DNA from: Candidatus Saccharimonadota bacterium
GTDB taxonomy: Bacteria; Patescibacteriota; Saccharimonadia; Saccharimonadales; JAXHMH01
Length of the DNA: 64,000 bases
NCBI GenBank assembly: GCA_034521515.1
Contig: JAXHMH010000002.1
Span: 437,761 to 501,760 of the forward strand
Reading direction: 5' to 3'
The notes below the pieces were generated by a model. That model ran no database searches and had not been told where the DNA came from. It worked only from the letters and a program-made list of their open reading frames with translations. The position numbers and the translations under genes were made by a program. Shown here piece after piece: positions 3,136 through 63,040 of this stretch (positions are counted from its first letter, which is position 1; every line of letters starts with the position of its first letter).

Positions 3136-4431
3136 CTAACTACTGCGAACGAAGTTCTCTCTAAGCCATTCGTCTAAGCTATCGCCGCCGCCGCCAGCCA
3201 TGGCCACTACCATGTCGCCAGAATCTAGATGTTTTTGGATAACTTCTTTGAGCTTTTCGTCGCGCTCCAAGGGCTCTGCTATAGCTGGATTACTGAGGTG
3301 GGTAATCATTTCGGCAGGCGGAATAACGCGTTGATCAGGATCCTCGCGTGCTAAGTAGCTCGGAATCCAGTAGACTTTGTTGGCACCATCAAAACAATCT
3401 TTGTAGTCATCTATCATGTAGTGCTGGCGGCGATTGGTTAAAGGTTCGTATATCACGACAAGTTTGTTATCTCCGGACATCTCAAGCGCTACGCTCATGG
3501 CGCCACGGATTTTTTCTGGCGTGTGGGCGTAATCAGTGTAGAGATTAGGCACCAGCTCCTCCATGCGACGCTGGAGGCCAGGGAACTTGTTCATGTGTTC
3601 CACTAGGTCTGCAACCGGAGTTTTGGTTATTTTATGAGCTGATTGTATAGCCAGCCAAGCGTCTAGCCGGTTATACAAACCAGCCAGTTTAATATCATCA
3701 ATATGTTTGTGGCTGCTATCTAGGATTTCTAGTCCGTCACGTGGCGCTAGGCTTAGATAATCTGCATCTTCTTGCCATAAATAGGTGTGTTGGCTTTGAG
3801 AAATAAACTCCTGAAAGGCTTGTTGGTAATCCTCACGGGTGGGGAATATCTCATGATGATCCCATGTAACACCTGTAATTAGGCTAGTATGAGAGTTATA
3901 CGACAAAAAATTACGGTCAAACTCATCACATTCTAGAACAAAATATTTGGAACTTGCTTTATATTGACCCATATCGCCAAACGGTATTTTTGCCCCAACG
4001 GAATAACTCAGTGGGATGCCGAGCTGTTTGAATAGCCACACTGTCATAGCGGTGGTTGTTGTCTTGCCGTGGGTGCCAGCCACAGCAATTAGCTTGAGAT
4101 GTTTTTCGGAGATGATGTAATTAAGTAGCTCGTCACGCTTGCTCATCTTGATATTTTGCTCGCGGCAGTAAGTAAGCTCTGGAGCGTTTGGGTTTTCAAT
4201 TGCTACGGCTGAAGAATAAACGTACCAGTCAATTGGGTCTTCTTGGTGGACGTGTTCGATTTCGTCACGCTCTTGGCCGATGTGAATATTGACAATACCC
4301 TTACTTCGTAAGTAGTGGATATACTGAGAATCTTGCTTGTCGGAGCCAGATACTTCGTGCCCAGCTTGTTTGGCTATGAGGGCTAGGGGGCCGATGGCTG
4401 TCCCACCTATCCCACTAAAGAAAATATGCAT
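3136..4431 (-). CDS. Mur ligase family protein (UDP-N-acetylmuramate-L-alanine ligase MurC / Mpl-like)
   Basis: 431 aa. The N-terminal Rossmann motif is GIGGTAIGPLA and the Mur ligase P-loop is VAGTHGKTTTTAM. The C-terminal Mur ligase domain is also present. Confidence 0.75.
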   Translation of the reverse strand: MHIFFSGIGGTAIGPLALIAKQAGHEVSGSDKQDSQYIHYLRSKGIVNIHIGQERDEIEHVHQEDPIDWYVYSSAVAIENPNAPELTYCREQNIKMSKRDELLNYIISEKHLKLIAVAGTHGKTTTTAMTVWLFKQLGIPLSYSVGAKIPFGDMGQYKASSKYFVLECDEFDRNFLSYNSHTSLITGVTWDHHEIFPTREDYQQAFQEFISQSQHTYLWQEDADYLSLAPRDGLEILDSSHKHIDDIKLAGLYNRLDAWLAIQSAHKITKTPVADLVEHMNKFPGLQRRMEELVPNLYTDYAHTPEKIRGAMSVALEMSGDNKLVVIYEPLTNRRQHYMIDDYKDCFDGANKVYWIPSYLAREDPDQRVIPPAEMITHLSNPAIAEPLERDEKLKEVIQKHLDSGDMVVAMAGGGGDSLDEWLRENFVRSS

Positions 4432-4437
4432 GCTCTA

Positions 4438-4468
4438 AGTTTCGCATCACAGCGGTCTGCTGTCCAGC
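4438..4468. repeat. 31-bp direct repeat copy A1 (AGTTTCGCATCACAGCGGTCTGCTGTCCAGC)
   Basis: It is identical to 4703..4733. It lies 7 nt upstream of the Mur-ligase start codon, inside a GC-rich 515-bp intergenic region. Confidence 0.8.
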
Positions 4469-4702
4469 TGAAGCTGGCCACTCCACCGCTGTTCTTGGCA
4501 CATTGCGGCCGCTCATGCTCCAGTGCTCCTTCGGCGTATTGCATATACGCCTCTGTCCGCGCTTCGCTTGACCGACCACACTGCACTCAAGTGCGAAACT
4601 TAGGCTGGCTGCAGGTAAGTAGAAAGTATCAAGTGTTGCGACAACCATGTCCGTGTTTCATCGCTTCATCCGTCCTGCACTCAAGTGCGAACCTCGTGGC
4701 CG

Positions 4703-4733
4703 AGTTTCGCATCACAGCGGTCTGCTGTCCAGC
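4703..4733. repeat. 31-bp direct repeat copy A2
   Basis: It is an exact copy of 4438..4468. Partner repeats CTGCACTCAAGTGCGAAAC (4580..4598) and CTGCACTCAAGTGCGAACC (4675..4693) carry the reverse complement of the A 5' end. Confidence 0.8.
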
Positions 4734-4945
4734 GAGTTGGCAGTTGGTAGCTAGTAGATAGGAGTTGGGGGGTGCTGTGCGCTGGCAGGCTCCAGCATTA
4801 TTATCCAGTATCAAGTACTAAGTACTAGGTACTGAGCGCAGCTCCATCCTTTATCTATTACCTATCAACTATCACCTATCAATTTCCGTCTCCCGTCTCC
4901 AACACTGTGCTACACTTGACATGAGTAAAACTAAACATAAAAAGT

Positions 4946-6157
4946 ATGCTAAAAACACTAATTTCACGTATATTTCGCCGCCATCACTACTGGCGTAACA
5001 TTGGGTTTGATGAGCTCAGTGAGCTATATACGAGCATGATGTTTAGAAACCTGGCTCTAAGCTTGGTCGGTATATTTATACCGATATACCTATACGAACT
5101 TGGGTTTAGTCTGCCGATTATATTGTCGTTTTACGTGGTTATGTTTCTAACACGCATACCGGCAGATTTTATTACAGGTTATTGTGTAGCCAAATTTGGC
5201 CCTAAACACACTATGTTTTTAAGTTACATAGCCTATGTCATTGCGTTATCACTTTTTACAAGCTACGAACAATTCAATTGGCCAATTTACTTACTAGCAG
5301 TCGTGTGGGGTATTAGCGGCAGCCTGTTCTTCATTGCATTTCATGTTGATTTTTCTAAGGTGAAGCACAAAAAACACGGTGGTAAAGAGCTGGGGGTCTT
5401 AACTATAATGGAGCGACTTGGAGCTACGTTAGGGCCAATTACCGGTGGCGTTGTGGCCGCATTGTTTGGAGCACAGTACACCTTTTTAGCCGCCACATTG
5501 TTTTTTATGACCGCTTTAATCCCATTATTTTTTACTGCAGAGCCGGTCAAGACCAGGCAGCATCTAGACTACCGAGGGCTACCTATCAAGAAGCTTAAAC
5601 AGGATTTTATCTCGCACGCGTCACTTAGTGTCGAAAACAGTACCCATATTGCTATCTGGCCGTTGTTTCTAGCGCTATTTGTGTTTGTTGACAATATTTA
5701 TCTTCAGATTGGCGCCCTAACTTCATTTGCTGTTATTGTGTCGGTGATTCTTGCCCGAGTTATCGGTCAAACGGTTGATAATAAAAAAGGTAGGCGTTTA
5801 CTAAGAATTGGCTCACGGGCAAATATAATTCTACATGGACTACGGCCAATGGTCAGTTCGTTTGGGCTCGCGCTGTCAGTAAACTTTATTCACGAGATTT
5901 TGACTACATCTTTCCGCTTACCGTATATAAAAGGTATGTATGATCGAGCCGATGAGCTAGAGGGGCACAGAATTGTCTATATTGTTTCGCTAGAAGCTCT
6001 TAGCTGTATTGTTAGAGCAGCATTCTACGGGTTGCTGGCAATTTTGGCGCTTAGTTTCAGTTCATTTAGTGTGTTTGTTGCTGCTTTCGGGTTAGCGGCA
6101 ATTGCTTCATACGGTATCACGCTAGAAAAATTCCCAGCTTTGAATGTAAAAAAATAG
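4946..6157 (+). CDS. Polytopic membrane transporter, probably MFS-type
   Basis: 403 aa with about 12 predicted TM helices in a 6+6 layout and a central cytoplasmic loop. The family call rests on topology only. Confidence 0.5.
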   Translation: MLKTLISRIFRRHHYWRNIGFDELSELYTSMMFRNLALSLVGIFIPIYLYELGFSLPIILSFYVVMFLTRIPADFITGYCVAKFGPKHTMFLSYIAYVIALSLFTSYEQFNWPIYLLAVVWGISGSLFFIAFHVDFSKVKHKKHGGKELGVLTIMERLGATLGPITGGVVAALFGAQYTFLAATLFFMTALIPLFFTAEPVKTRQHLDYRGLPIKKLKQDFISHASLSVENSTHIAIWPLFLALFVFVDNIYLQIGALTSFAVIVSVILARVIGQTVDNKKGRRLLRIGSRANIILHGLRPMVSSFGLALSVNFIHEILTTSFRLPYIKGMYDRADELEGHRIVYIVSLEALSCIVRAAFYGLLAILALSFSSFSVFVAAFGLAAIASYGITLEKFPALNVKK

Positions 6158-15050: not shown

Positions 15051-15126
<76 letters not shown>

Positions 15127-34537: not shown

Positions 34538-34574
34538 AAGAAAAGAGTCCCACTTGAAGTGGGACTCTTTTCTT
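34538..34574 (-). terminator. 16-bp perfect hairpin abutting the tRNA-Met 3' end (AAGAAAAGAGTCCCAC-ttgaa-GTGGGACTCTTTTCTT)
   Basis: Read from the sequence. The stem begins at the tRNA CCA. Confidence 0.6.
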
Positions 34575-34650
34575 GGTAGCGGCGACAAGACTTGAACTTG
34601 TGACCTCCGGCTTATGAGTCCGGCGCTCTAACCAGCTGAGCTACGCCGCC
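34574..34650 (-). tRNA. tRNA-Met (CAU), elongator-like
   Basis: Manual cloverleaf: acceptor GGCGGCG/CGCCGCU with a G1.U72 wobble, D-loop AGCUGGUUA, anticodon loop CU-CAU-AA, variable loop AGGUC, T-loop UUCAAGU, discriminator A, and CCA encoded. Confidence 0.75.
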
Positions 34651-34846: not shown

Positions 34847-35351
34847 GACTGACCGCTTAATTAATCAAAGTCGGTTTAGCAATTTGTCTACCTTGAGGAT
34901 GCCCGAATTTTTGGTTGGAGCAAACTCATACGCAAATTTAAGCGCCATACACCAGTCCTTTCAATGTTTATTTTGTGTTGTTTGTTTTAGTCGACTAACA
35001 CTACACATTATACATGCTTTTGCTTTTTTGTCAACTTCAGTACTACACACCTCTTGGCGGCTAGCTTTGTTGACAGCTGTAGTGCTCGTTCAACGTATTA
35101 GAATACGTCTCTCTGCGCGCTGCTCTGTCGCCGTGCTATCCATCCGAGTGAGTAGCCCTGAATACCTCATCTGTAAATATGCCTATTGTAGGATCCATAG
35201 ATTTGTGCTTTACTTGGCGTGCAGGTTCTTATCTGTTGTTCGCATGAGAAGGTCGTTTGTTTTTTGATTAAAGAACACCGTTTGACAGTTCAATGCCAGA
35301 GACAGAAAGGGGTCGTACCTCGCAACAAGTTCTTTAATTAGGAAACAACAC

Positions 35352-35673: not shown

Positions 35674-35703
35674 AAACACCCCGGTAAAACGGGGTGTTTT
35701 TTA
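35674..35703. terminator. Bidirectional intrinsic terminator CAAACACCCCGGTAAAACGGGGTGTTTTTT
   Basis: 8-bp stem flanked by an A-run and a T-run, between the convergent RRM and sigma genes. Confidence 0.7.
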
Positions 35704-36378
35704 TACTTCTTCTATTGTTGACTCCTTGTCTGGGAATACAAGTTCACGTAACCGTCTTCTTGCCCTGTGCAATCGCACCTTAGATGCAGTCTCTGATATA
35801 CCAAGCTTTTGGGCAATAACATCATGCGGCAAATCATAGACATCTCGCAAAACTACCACAGACCTCATTATTGGCGATAATTGCTCTATCGCAGACCTCA
35901 GTTCATCTCGTAATTCGGCATTTTCTACACGATGCTCAACGTCATAGTCTGAATGTTTTGCCACGTATTCTTTAGTTTCATCCTCGTCCCTATTGATAGC
36001 TAATTTATCCTGAAGTTTCTTACGTTTTTCAATGTACGTATTGGCAGCATTAACAGTTATCCGGTGAAACCATGTCGTAAAGCTGGACTCGCCGCGAAAA
36101 CCAGGTAAACCACGCCACGCGCGAAGATAACTTTCCTGAACAACCTCGCTGGCACCTTCCGCGTCATGCGTAAAACGGCGGGCAGTACTGTAGGCGTGTC
36201 CGGACGTAAGCCTTACGATATCTTCAAATTTCCGTTGCGCGGCTATGTGATAAACAGATGATTCATCGTCTGCTAACTTTAGATCAGCTTGAACAGCATC
36301 CACTAACTTACTAACTCGAGCCTGATACTCTTCTTCTGGAGTTAACTCCACGTCTCCGTAGTTATAAGCTTCCGACAT
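35701..36378 (-). CDS. ECF-type RNA polymerase sigma factor (sigma-70 regions 2 and 4)
   Basis: Region 2 is YLRAWRGLPGFRGESSFTTWFHRITVN. Region 4 HTH is LPHDVIAQKLGISETASKVRLHRARRRL. Confidence 0.8.
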   Translation of the reverse strand: MSEAYNYGDVELTPEEEYQARVSKLVDAVQADLKLADDESSVYHIAAQRKFEDIVRLTSGHAYSTARRFTHDAEGASEVVQESYLRAWRGLPGFRGESSFTTWFHRITVNAANTYIEKRKKLQDKLAINRDEDETKEYVAKHSDYDVEHRVENAELRDELRSAIEQLSPIMRSVVVLRDVYDLPHDVIAQKLGISETASKVRLHRARRRLRELVFPDKESTIEEV

Positions 36379-36541: not shown

Positions 36542-36616
36542 CGCGGGGTAGAGCAGCGGCAGCTCGTGTGGCTCATAACCACAAGGTCGGAGGTTCGAGT
36601 CCTCCCCCCGCTACCA
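36542..36616 (+). tRNA. Initiator tRNA-fMet (CAU)
   Basis: 5' CGCGGGG with an unpaired C1xU72, an A11:U24 pair in the D-stem, anticodon loop CU-CAU-AA, and CCA encoded. The 5' acceptor and D-arm closely match E. coli tRNA-fMet. Confidence 0.8.
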
Positions 36617-39690: not shown

Positions 39691-40443
39691 TTAAAGTCGT
39701 GAATTGCCTTCAGTCTTCACATCAGCCTCTATGAACTTTATAAATTCTTTAGCAAAGTCTGTTAACGCCCACCCAGTAATCTGTCCAGCACTTGAAAATC
39801 CCCAACCACCATTAATAGCAGACACTCGCCTGACCAGGCCGAGAAACTCGAGTTCATTAAGTTGATCATTCATTTTACCGAGGTTACCAGTACTATCATA
39901 TTTAGAAAAGGGCTTGGAGTTAAGCTCTTTCTGATACCACCATTCAAACGGTTGCTCAGTGCCTAAGTTTTTTTGCTCAAGCTCTGATTTAATCCTAATC
40001 TCCATTTCTGGTAGTACGCTATTCTTCACAAATGCCAATGCCCTCAGGCTAACTGGTGATATTTTTCTAAGCGTGTCGTTGTACCTTTCTAGCGGGAACT
40101 CTACCTTATCATCGCAAGCCGCAAACTCCTCAAATGCTTTGAGTGCTACACGCCTCTTCAGGAAGTCTCTGAGCTTTATATAGTCTTCTAGTGCTACGAC
40201 AAAACCATCTTGGAATTCGTCAGAGTTAACAAGCCTCTCATTAAATATAGTGGGGTTGTTTGATATTGCTTCGACCCACTCCAACGCTCGCTGCTGTCTA
40301 AGTTGAAGTGCATTGCCAAACAGGGCTTTACTTAATGCCCATGCCTGAGCAAGTCCAGGTAAGACTGACGCAGTGCTGTCAATGAGTGCGAATCCCGAAC
40401 GCTTGAGCAGATTTTTATCAGACTTGCTGTTTGATTTTGCCAT
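39691..40443 (-). CDS. Hypothetical protein (island cargo, unknown function)
   Basis: 250-aa ORF directly upstream of the HAD-like gene, so the two may form an operon. No motifs were recognised. Confidence 0.4.
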   Translation of the reverse strand: MAKSNSKSDKNLLKRSGFALIDSTASVLPGLAQAWALSKALFGNALQLRQQRALEWVEAISNNPTIFNERLVNSDEFQDGFVVALEDYIKLRDFLKRRVALKAFEEFAACDDKVEFPLERYNDTLRKISPVSLRALAFVKNSVLPEMEIRIKSELEQKNLGTEQPFEWWYQKELNSKPFSKYDSTGNLGKMNDQLNELEFLGLVRRVSAINGGWGFSSAGQITGWALTDFAKEFIKFIEADVKTEGNSRL

Positions 40444-51280: not shown

Positions 51281-51448
51281 CCAAGACTACCAACATAACG
51301 TTCACTACCAGCACCGCCTGTTGCACGCCTATCTTGCCAGTTTCTTTTCCAGTCCAGCTACGCTGTAGCAACAACTACACCTTGCTCTGGTCTTCAAAGA
51401 GAACTACCAAGCTAGGCATGCCCAGTCGGTGCCGGACAATAAAGTCAG

Positions 51449-60701: not shown

Positions 60702-60742
60702 AAAGAAAAAACCCCACCACTAAAGGGTAGGGTCTTTTCTTT
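60702..60742 (-). terminator. Imperfect long hairpin directly abutting the tRNA-Lys 3' end
   Basis: The sequence is AAAGAAAAGACCCTACCC...GGTGGGGTTTTTTCTTTG on the minus strand, with a U-tract after the stem. Confidence 0.55.
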
Positions 60743-60818
60743 GGAGGGCCCACTGGGACTCGAACCCAGGACACCCTGCTTAAAAGGCAGGTGCTCTAAC
60801 CGGCTGAGCTATGGGCCC
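60742..60818 (-). tRNA. tRNA-Lys (UUU)
   Basis: Manual cloverleaf: acceptor GGGCCCA/UGGGCCC, anticodon loop CU-UUU-AA, T-loop UUCGAGU, and CCA encoded. Confidence 0.85.
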
Positions 60819-61130
60819 CCAGATCTTTGCACCGTGTTGTCACTGCTTCTGGCAAAGCCAGAACTCCGCCGACACTCTTGGCGAACTGCTGTGTTGCCTG
60901 GCTTGTGGTGCGTCCTCAACGTAGCTAAACTACGTCTCCGGTCGCTCCTCACCGGCGCCGTGCACTTCATACAAGTGCAAAAATCTGGAGGTCCGTGATT
61001 TAACCCTAACAGGGAAATAACTTCTAACATTATGCTGATTTTACATAAAAAGTCAATCTGATGTGCATCTGTTAGCGGTACAATCCCGTGTTACAATAAC
61101 AGATGAAAATGAGTTAGCAGAGGAGTAATT

Positions 61131-62422: not shown

Positions 62423-63040
62423 TTAGCTTGCTAGCGAGTGCTCGATCTCCGTTAACATATCCTTGTGTTCCTTATAGTCTTCAACAAATTTCAGATAATC
62501 GTGAGCATCCGTAAACAGTTCCAAAATTCGGGTTGGCTGTATCCACTCGACAGACTTATACCCAAGATAGTGGGGAAGACTTGAATACGGCCACTCTTTG
62601 TAAGCAACCGGATTGAGGTGTATATAACGAGAAATATGGTGTAAATACTCATCAGAAGTGATCATACTGGCCTTAAACCTATCTTGAAAAAGAGGACCGA
62701 CACGTTTATGTTTTTTATTAAAATACGAGGTGTAGCTACCACAAACATTTTTTATCAGATTTTTCAGGGCATTCTCCTCTAGCTGGTAAACAAGCAGGTG
62801 GAAATGGTTTGGCATAAGGCAAAAAGCCAATAGTTCAATATCGTTATAAAGCCACGGATATTGTCGACCCTTTGTATCTTTTGCTGGTTCCCTCGAAAGA
62901 TAACGTTTGAGTAGATTTAAAAAAACTGAGTAGTCTTCGTCGTCTAAAAATATCTTCCGCTTATCAACCCCTCTGTTATAAACATGGTAATGCGTATTTT
63001 CTATGTAGATTTTTCGAGAATTCCGGCTAGCCATTAACAC
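62423..63040 (-). CDS. REP-associated tyrosine transposase (RAYT; IS200/IS605-like HUH Y1 transposase)
   Basis: The HUH motif is MPNHFHLLV, the N-terminal motif is THYHVYNRG, and a Tyr-containing C-terminal helix is present (SDEYLHHISRYIHLNP). The gene is flanked by identical palindromes. Confidence 0.75.
   Translation of the reverse strand: MLMASRNSRKIYIENTHYHVYNRGVDKRKIFLDDEDYSVFLNLLKRYLSREPAKDTKGRQYPWLYNDIELLAFCLMPNHFHLLVYQLEENALKNLIKNVCGSYTSYFNKKHKRVGPLFQDRFKASMITSDEYLHHISRYIHLNPVAYKEWPYSSLPHYLGYKSVEWIQPTRILELFTDAHDYLKFVEDYKEHKDMLTEIEHSLAS

Follow-up and report, generated by a model that had tools for sequence, protein, structure and literature searches.

A Y-shaped structured repeat upstream of murC in Candidatus Saccharibacteria, probably mobile and resembling RPEs and MITEs

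The spacer between murC and a divergent MFS transporter gene in the 64-kb window (i.e., the whole stretch of DNA analysed here) contains nested direct and inverted repeats, which raises the question of what these repeats represent. The initial annotation offered an uncharacterised structured RNA, a small MITE or foldback element, and a duplicated regulatory leader. Both genes are confirmed as the neighbours it had named (Table 1), and the GC content is indeed elevated, with 0.55 over positions 4401-4800 vs. about 0.38-0.49 for the flanking genes. The 31-mer AGTTTCGCATCACAGCGGTCTGCTGTCCAGC is found identically at 4438-4468 and 4703-4733, as claimed, and beyond chance (no such match in 100 shuffles). 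A shorter repeat, CTGCACTCAAGTGCGAA, is situated at 4581-4597 and 4675-4691, exhibits 95% identity when extended to 20 nt, and compares with a mean of 0.01 matches in shuffled sequences; here, the pair itself and the position 4675 had been given correctly, whereas the other position, 4580, was off by one (4581). The stem of about 10 bp that had been proposed to form over a long range corresponds to a perfect inverted repeat of 12 bp (4435-4446 and 4592-4603), which likewise exceeds chance expectation, and the CTATCA-type low-complexity tail is present as a 14-nt tandem at 4855-4882. The entire 514-nt region folds better than shuffled sequences on both strands (z = -4.1 and -3.9), and a core of 179 nt reaches -88.2 kcal/mol (z = -6.9) on the minus strand and -70.2 kcal/mol (z = -4.0) on the plus strand.

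Both repeat pairs are the ends of separate copies of an element of about 170 nt, rather than parts of one large structure, and the locus holds one intact copy (termed Z) and two broken ones. Copy Z ends 4 nt before the ATG of murC (4431); its minus strand folds 18 kcal/mol better than its plus strand, its minimum-free-energy fold agrees with the consensus fold of the family, and minus is the functional strand of the element at this locus. The 5' fragment of a second copy opens with the second 20-mer (B', 4675-4694), which agrees with Z without any difference over GUUCGCACUUGAGUGCAG; beyond B' it exhibits patchy similarity only, with the apex of arm P2, the junction and hairpin P3 absent, and it was not called as a copy in the covariance model (CM) search of the window. 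A third copy is represented by its solo 3' arm; on the minus strand, this arm is situated upstream of B' at a distance of 8-10 nt, in an arrangement resembling a head-to-tail junction. Three tandem or nested copies may formerly have been situated upstream of murC, two of which would have decayed and left over the second 20-mer and the second 31-mer. Similar solo 3' arms adjoin the start codons of murC in L002 and of a HIT gene in L097 and L061. The CTATCA-type tail forms the 3' arm of a separate foldback (-61.8 kcal/mol, z = -4.8), which is outside the repeat family: blastn with this foldback matched only itself and the identical contig L001, with no other copy. Its outer arm is homologous to L002 1505-1535, and the upstream region of the MFS gene with its first codons is kept in L002 (1500-1453) at 92% identity (blastn), though the MFS gene itself is missing there.

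Table 1. Features of the murC upstream locus and further copies of the element in the window.
Feature	Position	Strand	Remarks
MurC gene	3136-4431	minus	three Mur ligase domains
Intact copy Z of the ~170-nt element	4436..4606	minus	CM 169 bits (R1), 150 bits (R2), full length 1-169
P1 5' strand CUAAGUUUCGCA	4592..4603	minus	perfect 12-bp inverted repeat with 4435-4446
P2 apical hairpin GGCGUAU-AUGCA-AUACGCC	4533..4551	minus	flanked by conserved GA-rich internal loops
P2-P3 junction GCCAAGAA	4492..4499	minus	near-invariant, nearly all copies
Hairpin P3	4449..4491	minus	inverted repeat; conserved internal loop GGYRGWGU opposite AGCAGRC
31-mer A, 3' arm of copy Z	4438..4468	minus	GC-TGGACA-17 nt-(TG-C)GAAACT
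-35-like hexamer	4461-4466	minus	TGGACA, 5/6 consensus
TG of extended -10	4445-4446	minus	aligned start regions
-10-like hexamer	4438-4443	minus	GAAACT, 3/6 consensus, with A2 and T6
Decayed 5' fragment, second copy	4604..4697	minus	pairwise alignment with 5' half of Z
Solo 3' arm, third copy	4703..4745	minus	second 31-mer A' (4703-4733, identical to A) and ~12 nt of degenerate P3
Separate imperfect foldback with CTATCA-type tail	4735..4877	.	26-nt inverted repeat, 77% complementarity, inner palindromes
MFS upstream region and first codons	4907..4954	plus	TTGACA at 4915-4920
MFS transporter gene	4946-6157	plus	divergent from murC
Third copy in window, without hairpin P3	35039..35163	minus	CM 60 and 82 bits; 43-position deletion
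Second full copy in window	60821..60990	minus	CM 110 and 135 bits

The element exhibits a Y-shaped fold bounded by a terminal helix (P1) of 9-15 bp, the strands of which behave like terminal inverted repeats. The 5' strand of P1 is followed by the near-invariant CUUGAGUGCAG, which corresponds to the 17-20-mer at 4581-4600. A near-invariant CUUG/CAAG helix is found inside the element, and many copies end with CAAG...CTTG. P2 is a long irregular arm with GA-rich internal loops and a CGUA...UACG apex, whose CGUA/UACG core is nearly invariant and whose closing pair covaries (CG:14 vs. UA:12). The junction GCCAAGAA, which served as search anchor, leads to hairpin P3 with its internal loop of the AGAG/GCAG type. 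All nine pairs of P1 covary across the family (9/9), and double changes are found in 13 of the 14 pairs of the P3 helices.

The covariance model finds three copies in the window, Z included, such that the 64 kb contain three copies and two remnants. The second full copy lies upstream of tRNA-Lys (60742-60818, minus strand), from which its end is separated by 2 nt, and is situated between a promoter-like TTGACT-16-CATAAT (61056-61029) and a terminator-like site (60728-60711); the copy without P3 is directly followed by a perfect TTGACA-16-TATAAT (35034-35007; 12/12 in the promoter scan). A fourth match (51306-51441) was not accepted, being weak (E = 0.0015, many mismatches). In Saccharibacteria genomes and metagenomes, the CM search yielded about 30 distinct copies, and the alignment used below (A5) comprises 35 matches, 28 of them distinct, to which five more inside tsaD are added. 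As found, the repeat is confined to one group of Candidatus Saccharibacteria and is apparently undescribed: no prior description was met with in the literature on structured RNAs, MITEs and leaderless transcription of Saccharibacteria/Patescibacteria. By eye, the initial annotation had recognised no known RNA class (RNase P, SRP, tmRNA or riboswitch); the Rfam check that it proposed likewise gave no relevant match, neither for the element nor elsewhere in the window (Rfam 15, gathering threshold), and a search with four copies up to E = 10 produced only chance eukaryotic lncRNA, miRNA and snoRNA matches and one weak bacterial sRNA (SorX).

Several known classes were compared and rejected. ARAGORN finds the expected tRNAs only, which excludes a tRNA or tmRNA, and the core motifs of RNase P, SRP, 6S, T-box, twister and hammerhead fail in a comparison by eye. 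Integron attC sites are simple hairpins, whereas the element is a Y. The P2 apex (GAGCCGUA...UACGG) is superficially similar to domain V of group II introns, but the bulge and the upper helix are absent and no intron model matches; against self-splicing introns in general stand the in-gene copies, all in frame and free of stops (6/6), the lack of a group I or II model match, and the intergenic position of most copies. Concerning a coding role, the overlapping ORFs 4415-4648 (minus), 4426-4761 (plus) and 4629-4814 (minus) have no Pfam matches, and no reading frame is open across all copies; a profile of six in-frame peptides found no match at the protein level, in a search that also missed the source proteins themselves. 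Outside the elements, GCGAAACTT occurs in the window at chance level and was discarded as a general leader motif. A phage or plasmid origin was rejected as well, with no blastn match of the element to 50,697 phage and 72,556 plasmid records, and with four pattern matches on viral contigs that proved to be non-members. The first genome-wide pattern scan gave 31 loci, 4 of them from the Candidate Phyla Radiation (CPR), with 27 chance matches vs. about 15 estimated; it missed real copies because the pattern demanded a gap of at least 4 nt.

There is very strong support for the Y-shaped fold, which is kept by compensatory change. In alignment A5, 95.1% of the cells are paired and double (compensatory) changes are found in 43 of the 51 pairs; the covariation score is 0.628 as compared to 0.217 in shuffled alignments (none of 500 reached 0.628) and at most 0.10 with the partners slid. 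An independent run of MAFFT and RNAalifold on 29 copies arrived at the same fold, in which compensation is seen for 49 of the 54 pairs. Among the paired cells, 102 are G-U or U-G and 21 A-C or C-A, a ratio which picks out the strand co-oriented with the neighbouring genes as the folding strand. Copies at the same locus in different genomes differ mainly by compensatory changes (at obg, 9 pairs compensated and 2 broken), and the in-gene copies in tsaD are 93.7% paired, with double changes in 33 of the 51 pairs. This compensation in place, at obg and tsaD, indicates purifying selection on the fold where the element sits; a purely selfish, decaying insert would not keep its fold in situ, which implies some function. 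Within one genome, copies are only about 60% alike, the complex fold being preserved nonetheless (16 pairs compensated and 2 broken between Z and the copy at 60821). P1 sequences vary and covary even within one genome, and such variable ends are unlike terminal repeats recognised by a transposase, which counts against reading the element as a mobile repeat.

Concerning genomic context, copies fill entire intergenic spacers. In 16 copies, the 3' end is situated about -15 to +7 nt from a start codon or tRNA on the same strand, in one more at 31 nt, and in 6 copies it overlaps the stop codon of a convergent gene; upstream genes on the same strand end 8-46 nt before the element. The adjoining start codons are validated by Pfam domains that begin at residues 1-5. 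Downstream of the copies lie murC, metG, obg, rnhB, ruvA, rpmA, rnpA, tsaD, HIT and NUDIX genes and a tRNA, without a consistent promoter or terminator around the copies. A Shine-Dalgarno sequence (GAGG or GGAG) is contained in the 3' strand of P1 in the rpmA and metG copies, and the L010 copy has the ATG inside P1. The element strand is co-oriented with the neighbouring genes; in some copies (L024a, L044a), both neighbours are on the opposite strand. Gene orientation is confounded with replication direction.

Orthologous sites are occupied in some genomes and empty in others. The murC upstream site is filled in the window, contains a remnant in L002 and is empty in L003 and L004; the HIT upstream site is filled in L065, contains a remnant in L097 and L061, and is empty in L105, L106 and L108; and the murE-tsaD spacer, filled in L042, measures merely 22-35 nt in L104, L105 and L108. 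Furthermore, in-frame inserts of about 57 amino acids with related peptides are found at one tsaD site in five orthologues and at another site in P0217, i.e., tsaD, an essential gene, has received two or more insertions independently. The six in-gene copies examined, at these two sites, are all in frame and stop-free and have kept the fold. In an AlphaFold model, the TsaD core remains confident and the insert is predicted to be disordered (pLDDT below 50 at residues 331-359). The element is short, non-coding and multi-copy in the genome, with terminal inverted repeats and insertion polymorphism as in MITEs, and its in-frame, stop-free insertion with a recurrent element frame, at positions tolerated by the protein fold, is like that of Rickettsia palindromic elements (RPEs). 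Copy Z is flanked by AGC on either side, which has a chance probability of 1 in 64; no target-site duplication is consistent across copies or tsaD sites, the filled and empty tsaD alleles being too diverged for comparison. No transposase, reverse transcriptase or REP-associated tyrosine transposase (RAYT) linked to the element was seen in the sequence covered, which comprised the 64 kb of the window out of a 706-kb contig and pieces of 8-14 kb from other genomes.

The 3' arm of copy Z is probably an outward promoter for a leaderless murC, a candidacy that derives from its sequence layout. Its promoter-likeness is 9/13, as compared to about 4.4-4.5 for shuffled sequences; its -10-like hexamer is weak (3/6), and a stricter consensus scan (at least 4/6 required) did not call it. 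Six nucleotides separate its -10-like hexamer from the murC ATG, and in 17 of the 54 long ORFs of the window such hexamers lie 6-8 nt before the ATG (the modal gap), such that the geometry TGGACA-17 nt-TGnGAAACT-6 nt-ATG is that of the leaderless-type promoters of this genome. Empty murC sites possess TATACT or TAGACT exactly where the element has GAAACT. Copies of the GAAACT/GATACT subfamily before seven genes (murC, obg, rnhB, ruvA, rnpA, tsaD and HIT) score 8-10/13, convergent and in-gene copies 4-8/13; the high-scoring copies all belong to one sequence subfamily, so that their shared layout may partly reflect common ancestry. In the subfamily of copy Z, the 3' arm may at the same time serve as an outward-facing promoter of the extended -10 type that stops 6 nt short of the start codon, which would allow the element to sit directly before leaderless genes such as murC without silencing them. 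A promoter in this arm would also explain why solo 3' arms survive beside start codons after deletion of the element, and the solo arm upstream of B' would, to judge from its sequence, constitute another promoter-like unit, directed into B', copy Z and murC. The duplicated regulatory leader of the initial annotation is thereby retained only as a duplicated 31-mer, probably a duplicated promoter arm, and does not hold otherwise.

Taken together, the element is probably a mobile structured repeat that resembles RPEs and MITEs and carries an outward promoter. It would be, or would once have been, mobile in the manner of non-autonomous repeats such as RPEs, ERIC sequences or Correia elements; it would be co-transcribed with its neighbours, and its fold would be selected at the RNA level. 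Two of the original suggestions are hence well founded, the structured RNA by a multi-copy family with a strongly covarying fold absent from Rfam, the small MITE or foldback element by insertions within genes and by presence/absence polymorphism. A reading as a meaningless duplication, confined to this single intergenic region and suggested by the local and exact nature of both repeat pairs, had been reserved for the case of no Rfam match, no transcription and no other copies; an Rfam match is indeed lacking, but the check for dispersal revealed about 35 further copies with covarying structure in the window and in other genomes, which refute this reading and leave it with virtually no probability. 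It is conceivable, if somewhat unlikely, that the element belongs to a novel class of functional structured RNAs that spread in the manner of mobile elements as well, e.g., as a ribozyme or a protein-recruiting module marking transcript boundaries in leaderless-gene-rich CPR bacteria; host-level selection would then keep the fold in every context, even during translation inside an essential gene. The element might also act as host RNA 'punctuation': transcribed within an intercistronic RNA or a 5' leader, it would undergo cleavage at the 3' base of P1, either autocatalytically or through a host RNase that recognises the fold. Cleavage would free mRNAs with a leader of 0-6 nt and a tRNA-Lys with a near-mature 5' end, and the processed ends would be translatable, since the organism apparently relies heavily on leaderless initiation. 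P1 reaches the start codon in many copies, and its outer pairs covary with the 4-6 nt before the ATG; the copy 2 nt before tRNA-Lys must be contained in the tRNA precursor, as it lies downstream of a good promoter; many copies lie between co-directional genes, where the downstream leaderless cistron is otherwise without a 5' end; the fold is selected in situ; and the conserved unpaired nucleotides resemble a catalytic or protein-binding core. However, cleavage would be pointless or harmful in the six copies abutting convergent stop codons and in the two independent ones in frame in tsaD, L002 and L097 evidently still express murC and HIT with the 3' arm only, models of known self-cleaving ribozymes and of RNase P/Z substrates do not match, and an ordinary Shine-Dalgarno sequence lies inside P1 of the rpmA and metG copies, such that we regard processing as unlikely. 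Mitochondrial tRNA 'punctuation', where folded RNA likewise abuts coding sequence with 0-6 nt between in a system rich in leaderless mRNAs, is an analogy for this processing only; the element is not a tRNA, and its processing is only hypothesised.

Instead of RNA, single-stranded DNA might be the folded molecule, serving as substrate of an HUH-type enzyme in transposition of the REPIN/RAYT or IS200/IS605 type, with transcription incidental. A strand-specific fold would equally fit a single strand of DNA, the element occurs in multiple non-coding copies without an open frame common to them, and it clusters in tandem, as upstream of murC. REPIN populations likewise keep their hairpins by compensatory change and persist vertically. 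Nevertheless, no HUH substrate is known that would be comparable to a branched Y with conserved internal loops, the 102 G-U cells would be weak G-T pairs in DNA, and the 5' flank exhibits no conserved short target motif; with no HUH-type enzyme seen within the window and an element orientation that follows the neighbouring genes (though confounded with replication direction), this appears quite unlikely. Very unlikely, too, are multi-copy genes for a trans-acting ncRNA (an RNP scaffold, guide RNA or ribozyme) packed into a compact genome: copies in frame inside tsaD, others entirely without P3, presence/absence at orthologous sites, inconsistent promoters and terminators, and the lack of a variable, guide-like single-stranded segment outweigh the very strong covariation with conserved loops, the fold kept by diverged paralogues in one genome (Z and the 60821 copy), and the opposite-strand neighbours in L024a and L044a, where a sense RNA would need its own promoter. 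A leader of riboswitch-like or protein-binding type, in which P1 would hide the RBS/start region in response to a global signal, could draw on the Shine-Dalgarno sequences covered by P1 (rpmA, metG), on P1 reaching the start codon elsewhere (with the ATG within P1 in L010), and on junction nucleotides conserved like an aptamer core; it is highly improbable, as the genes downstream belong to no common pathway, the element also occurs facing convergent genes (six copies) and within an ORF, and relatives lack the element at the same genes.

The mobile structured repeat favoured here is most similar to RPEs, which are palindromic, non-coding and about 100-170 bp long, lack a known transposase, and occur in intergenic DNA, beside or within RNA genes and in frame in unrelated or essential protein genes, where in-gene copies add a peptide segment tolerated by the protein fold (PMC10969869); in both cases, the host is a reduced, host-dependent bacterium. 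MITEs in general carry sigma-70 promoters, cluster, insert into one another and make in-frame fusions, RPEs most often (PMC10969869). Despite this similarity, the Saccharibacteria element occurs in an unrelated phylum (CPR) and is, given that its host phylum differs from that of Rickettsia, regarded as an RPE analogue by its features rather than as a member of the RPEs. Furthermore, it is a branched Y with conserved internal loops, whereas RPEs are simple hairpins; most of its copies are intergenic and flush with gene starts, it has no family-wide open reading frame, and its fold is demonstrably kept by compensatory change, even in orthologous in-gene copies.

With the Correia elements of Neisseria (CREE/NEMIS) and promoter-bearing MITEs, it shares short inverted repeats directly upstream of genes, RNA hairpins of the terminal repeats, and clusters, and probably also co-transcription and outward sigma-70-like promoters (PMC10969869). 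Correia elements possess conserved terminal repeats of 26 bp as well as an IHF-binding site, they duplicate a TA target, and their copies are nearly identical, whereas in the Saccharibacteria element the terminal helix varies and covaries, a consistent duplication was not found, and copies within a genome are only about 60% alike. ERIC/IRU and REP/BIME/REPIN sequences of proteobacteria are also imperfect palindromes in transcribed intergenic or intercistronic regions that form orientation-dependent RNA hairpins; however, they consist of one simple hairpin or a pair of hairpins (35-127 nt), a RAYT gene is required by REPINs, and none of these repeats is known to lie flush against leaderless start codons or to contain a three-helix junction.

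In practical terms, the repeats interrupt assemblies (the Logan contig L001 terminates within the murC upstream region), lengthen ORF calls, several listed ORFs starting within the element, and account for the puzzling TsaD insertions of about 57 amino acids. The fold is among the best covariation-supported of uncatalogued bacterial RNA-like motifs, undescribed in Rfam 15 or the searchable literature. The element constitutes an independent second case of 'protein-coding palindromes', best known so far from Rickettsia, and in its orthologous in-gene copies a nucleic-acid fold is under selection besides the reading frame. Saccharibacteria and other CPR genomes are tiny, with almost no spare DNA; this lineage nevertheless carries dozens of 170-nt copies. 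If the 3' arm is a promoter, the element would show how a repeat can colonise the space before leaderless genes, where an insertion otherwise destroys the promoter, and it would provide a handle on the transcription signals of an uncultivated phylum.

The region between the divergent genes murC (3136-4431, minus strand) and MFS transporter (4946-6157, plus strand) is situated as the initial annotation described it, and its GC content is indeed higher than that of its neighbours (0.55 vs. 0.38-0.49 in the flanking genes). The pair of 31-mers at 4438 and 4703 is real, zero such pairs being produced by shuffles. Two copies of CTGCACTCAAGTGCGAA exist as well, the second at 4675 as reported, whereas the first starts at 4581 and not at 4580; the complementarity noticed between the ends of both repeat types extends over 12 bp without a mismatch, as an inverted repeat of 4435-4446 and 4592-4603. 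Both strands of the region fold better than shuffled sequence, and the Rfam check yielded zero family matches. The MurC protein is 100% identical to one from a MAG of a 'Candidatus Saccharibacteria bacterium' (706-kb contig).

The repeats belong to an element of about 170 nt with a Y-shaped fold (terminal helix P1, long arm P2, junction, hairpin P3), of which one intact copy, named Z, and remnants of two others precede murC (see table). The decayed 5' fragment is identical to Z over 19 nt and patchy thereafter, with apex, junction and P3 missing; the solo 3' arm lies 8-10 nt upstream of it, as it would in a head-to-tail junction. Bacterial MITE-like repeats typically cluster and nest in this way (PMC10969869). 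Between these remnants and the MFS promoter sits an unrelated foldback, imperfect and about 140 nt long (z = -4.8), with nested AGTACT palindromes. No second copy of it was found, and its outer arm duplicates, in inverted orientation, a sequence present once in the closest relative, L002. Concerning the MFS gene, its upstream region and first codons are retained in L002 (1453-1500, 92% identity) without the gene itself, so that the gene was either lost or acquired recently. In an independent assembly from this organism (L001, Logan contig SRR26473340_354319), position 1 of which corresponds to window position 4813, the contig breaks within this intergenic region, presumably because of the repeats.

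Positions of element copies and neighbouring features
Feature	Sequence	Position	Strand	Remark
Copy Z, intact	window	4436-4606	minus	5' end, first 20-mer; 3' end, first 31-mer
Decayed 5' fragment of another copy	window	4604-4697	minus	begins with second 20-mer (4675-4694)
Solo 3' arm of third copy	window	4703-4733	minus	second 31-mer, plus about 12 degenerate nt
Foldback with CTATCA tail	window	4735-4877		distinct from element, unique
MFS upstream region	window	4907-4954		conserved in L002
Element copy without P3	window	35039-35163	minus	R1 match
Element copy	window	60821-60990	minus	R1 match
Weak model match	window	51306-51441	minus	19 bits, E = 0.0015
Candidate small gene	window	34880-35034	minus	unannotated
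tRNA gene, CAU	window	15051-15126
tRNA gene, CAU	window	34574-34650
tRNA gene, CAU	window	36542-36616
Example ORF	window	14424
Example ORF	window	15226
Example ORF	window	35701-36378	minus
Example ORF	window	39691-40443	minus
Example ORF	window	50325
Example ORF	window	62423-63034	minus
Example ORF	window	63111
Element copy	L010	6306-6478		113-125 bits
Element copy	L004	2205-2455		extra hairpin
tsaD copy	L042	6601-6772		142 bits
tsaD copy	L104	6927-7095
tsaD copy	L105	2831-3002
tsaD copy	L106	4848-5016
tsaD copy	L107	6918-7086
tsaD copy	L108	6642-6810

The hairpin at 4443-4502 has two resembling sequences in the relative L004, elsewhere in that locus (blastn). In the orientation of the window's minus strand, these sequences have in common the conserved blocks UUCGCACUUGRRUGCAG, a CCGUA...UACGG hairpin, GCCAAGAA and a hairpin with a GGCAGAGU/AGCAGGC internal loop, linked by stems in which the sequence diverges and complementarity is kept. 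Four full copies (window, L004, and L007 and L024, which a pattern search in GTDB genomes had brought up), for which RNAalifold gave a Y-shaped structure with 26 of 51 pairs compensated, served for a first covariance model (R1), which matched two further copies in the window and more in CPR loci. A metagenome pattern scan followed by the model added 25 matches; the sequences from other phyla and from viral contigs that fitted the pattern by chance contributed none. The copy in L010 (JAHWKM010000001.1, labelled Candidatus Parcubacteria), whose P1 3' strand contains the ATG of a NUDIX gene, is a clear member; either the family extends beyond Saccharibacteria or this label is loose. The weak match in the window has many mismatches; it may have arisen by chance or represent a copy in advanced decay. 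The L004 copy listed in the table carries an additional 108-nt hairpin in the P2 apex and adjoins an assembly gap (N) that is flanked by a duplicated 50-nt sequence.

In a model-fitted alignment of 35 sequences (28 distinct), standard pairs occupy 95.1% of the cells and both sides are changed in 43 of 51 pairs; the covariation score is 0.628 as compared to a shuffle mean of 0.217 (reached by 0 of 500 shuffles) and at most 0.10 for structures with slid partners. Since this alignment had been fitted to the model, the test was repeated by plain MAFFT and RNAalifold on 29 copies, which gave the same fold with 49 of 54 pairs compensated. G-U/U-G cells outnumber A-C/C-A cells (102 vs. 21), and copy Z folds better on the minus strand (-88.2 kcal/mol, z = -6.9) than on the plus strand (-70.2 kcal/mol); the structure is thus a property of a single strand, termed sense.

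The 3' end of the element lies about -15 to +7 nt from the start of a same-strand gene in 16 distinct copies, and 31 nt from it in one further copy. Downstream are murC, metG, obg (2 copies), rnhB (3 copies), ruvA, rpmA (2 copies), rnpA, tsaD, a HIT gene, a NUDIX gene, two unnamed ORFs and a tRNA-Lys (2 nt away); Pfam domains of the downstream proteins begin at residues 1-5, so the start codons are right. Six copies share 2-5 nt with a convergent gene at its stop codon, and same-strand upstream genes end 8-46 nt ahead of the element. It usually constitutes the whole intergenic spacer, leftover spacer (41-339 nt) being found only where a divergent gene requires an upstream region for itself. 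According to consensus scans, the copy at 60821-60990 is part of a unit of promoter (TTGACT-16-CATAAT), element, tRNA-Lys and terminator, and would be transcribed in sense orientation. Immediately after the P3-less copy come a perfect TTGACA-16-TATAAT, a short leader, an ORF of 27 codons (MALKFAYEFAPTKNSGILKVDKLLNRL) and a hairpin with a short T run, the last of which resembles an intrinsic terminator by eye and was not called by the scan tool; this stretch is a candidate for a small gene. The three CAU-anticodon tRNA genes within 22 kb are presumably those for initiator tRNA, elongator tRNA-Met and tRNA-Ile2.

Three orthologous sites differ in state among related genomes. Upstream of murC, where the window is filled and three relatives were compared, L002 (MurC 82% identical) possesses a single 31-mer with 2 substitutions directly before the gene, and L003 and L004 have a spacer of 40-100 nt with none of the intergenic sequence of the window. 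The HIT site is filled in L065, contains a remnant in L097/L061 and is empty in L105, L106 and L108; the murE-tsaD spacer is filled in L042 and empty (22-35 nt) in L104, L105 and L108, without any remnant. Both remnants are 3' arms, still flush with the start codon.

One copy in L042 is situated inside tsaD, and the ORF reads through it; aligned to solved TsaD structures, the protein carries an insert of about 57 aa between residues 279 and 291 of 6nak_B. TsaD usually has 353 aa in Saccharibacteria, and 405-421 aa in several. Five orthologues (66-70% identity) possess the insert at the same site, and the TsaD protein P0217 contains a related peptide at a different one. The five newly fetched DNA copies score 106-156 bits each, with 93.7% of positions paired and 33 of 51 pairs double-changed (n = 5 sequences); all in-gene copies (6/6) are in frame and stop-free. 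In an AlphaFold model of the TsaD protein P0122, the core has high confidence and insert residues 331-359 have pLDDT < 50, which fits an insert predicted to be a tolerated excursion from the fold.

Concerning transcription, 17 of 54 long ORFs in the window (examples in the table) exhibit a TATAAT-like hexamer without a Shine-Dalgarno sequence, such -10-like hexamers clustering 6-8 nt before the ATG, as against about 1-2 per position in the background, so that many genes are inferred to be leaderless; this suggests that leaderless transcription may be common in this Saccharibacterium. At empty murC sites, TATACT or TAGACT stands 6 nt ahead of the ATG, and GAAACT occupies the same position in the window and L002. 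The minus strand of the 31-mer reads GC-TGGACA-(17 nt)-TG-C-GAAACT and would span an extended -10 preceded, at canonical spacing, by a -35-like hexamer, a putative promoter in which GAAACT matches 3 of 6 consensus positions and at which the promoter scan tool made no call. This arrangement, 6 or 7 nt ahead of the start codon, recurs before murC, obg, rnhB, ruvA, rnpA, tsaD and the HIT gene; copies before these genes reach a promoter-likeness of 8-10 out of 13 (convergent and in-gene copies 4-8, shuffles about 4.5), the high scorers all belonging to one subfamily. Their P3 3' strand keeps CUGGAC even at the cost of a mismatch with its partner. A promoter in the 3' arm would explain how this subfamily can precede leaderless genes, the constant spacing and the survival of solo 3' arms. 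The rpmA and metG copies contain an ordinary Shine-Dalgarno sequence inside P1 instead.

Copies at the same locus differ among genomes mainly by compensatory changes (obg: 9 compensated pairs, 2 wobble changes and 2 broken pairs; rpmA: 5, 2 and 3; 3' of a histidine kinase gene: 18, 3 and 2), as do the orthologous in-gene tsaD copies. Selection thus acts on the fold in place, and the element is not decaying as a purely selfish insert should. This maintenance could be caused by a host function, e.g., transcript-end protection, processing or protein binding, or else by conversion that active copies still bring about. Both the AGAG/GCAG loop and the conserved GA-rich loops are reminiscent of protein- or tertiary-contact motifs. 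An attractive rival is that the element serves leaderless messages as a 'punctuation' signal for processing, but this is weakened by the convergent copies, the in-gene copies and the remnants.

Among known systems, Rickettsia palindromic elements are closest in behaviour, with in-frame insertions, a reduced host genome and no known transposase in common, and promoter-bearing MITEs such as Correia elements are also similar. The element is a member of neither: it has variable, covarying ends and a branched fold on which selection continues to act, and a duplicated target site was not found. Neither a match in Rfam 15, phage or plasmid collections nor a prior description in the searchable literature was found; that it constitutes a new functional RNA class is a less likely yet serious possibility. 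In-frame insertion in genes has been described for the Rickettsia elements (PMC10969869), and here an in-frame translated element, at two sites, explains the puzzling insertions in the essential tRNA-modification enzyme TsaD.
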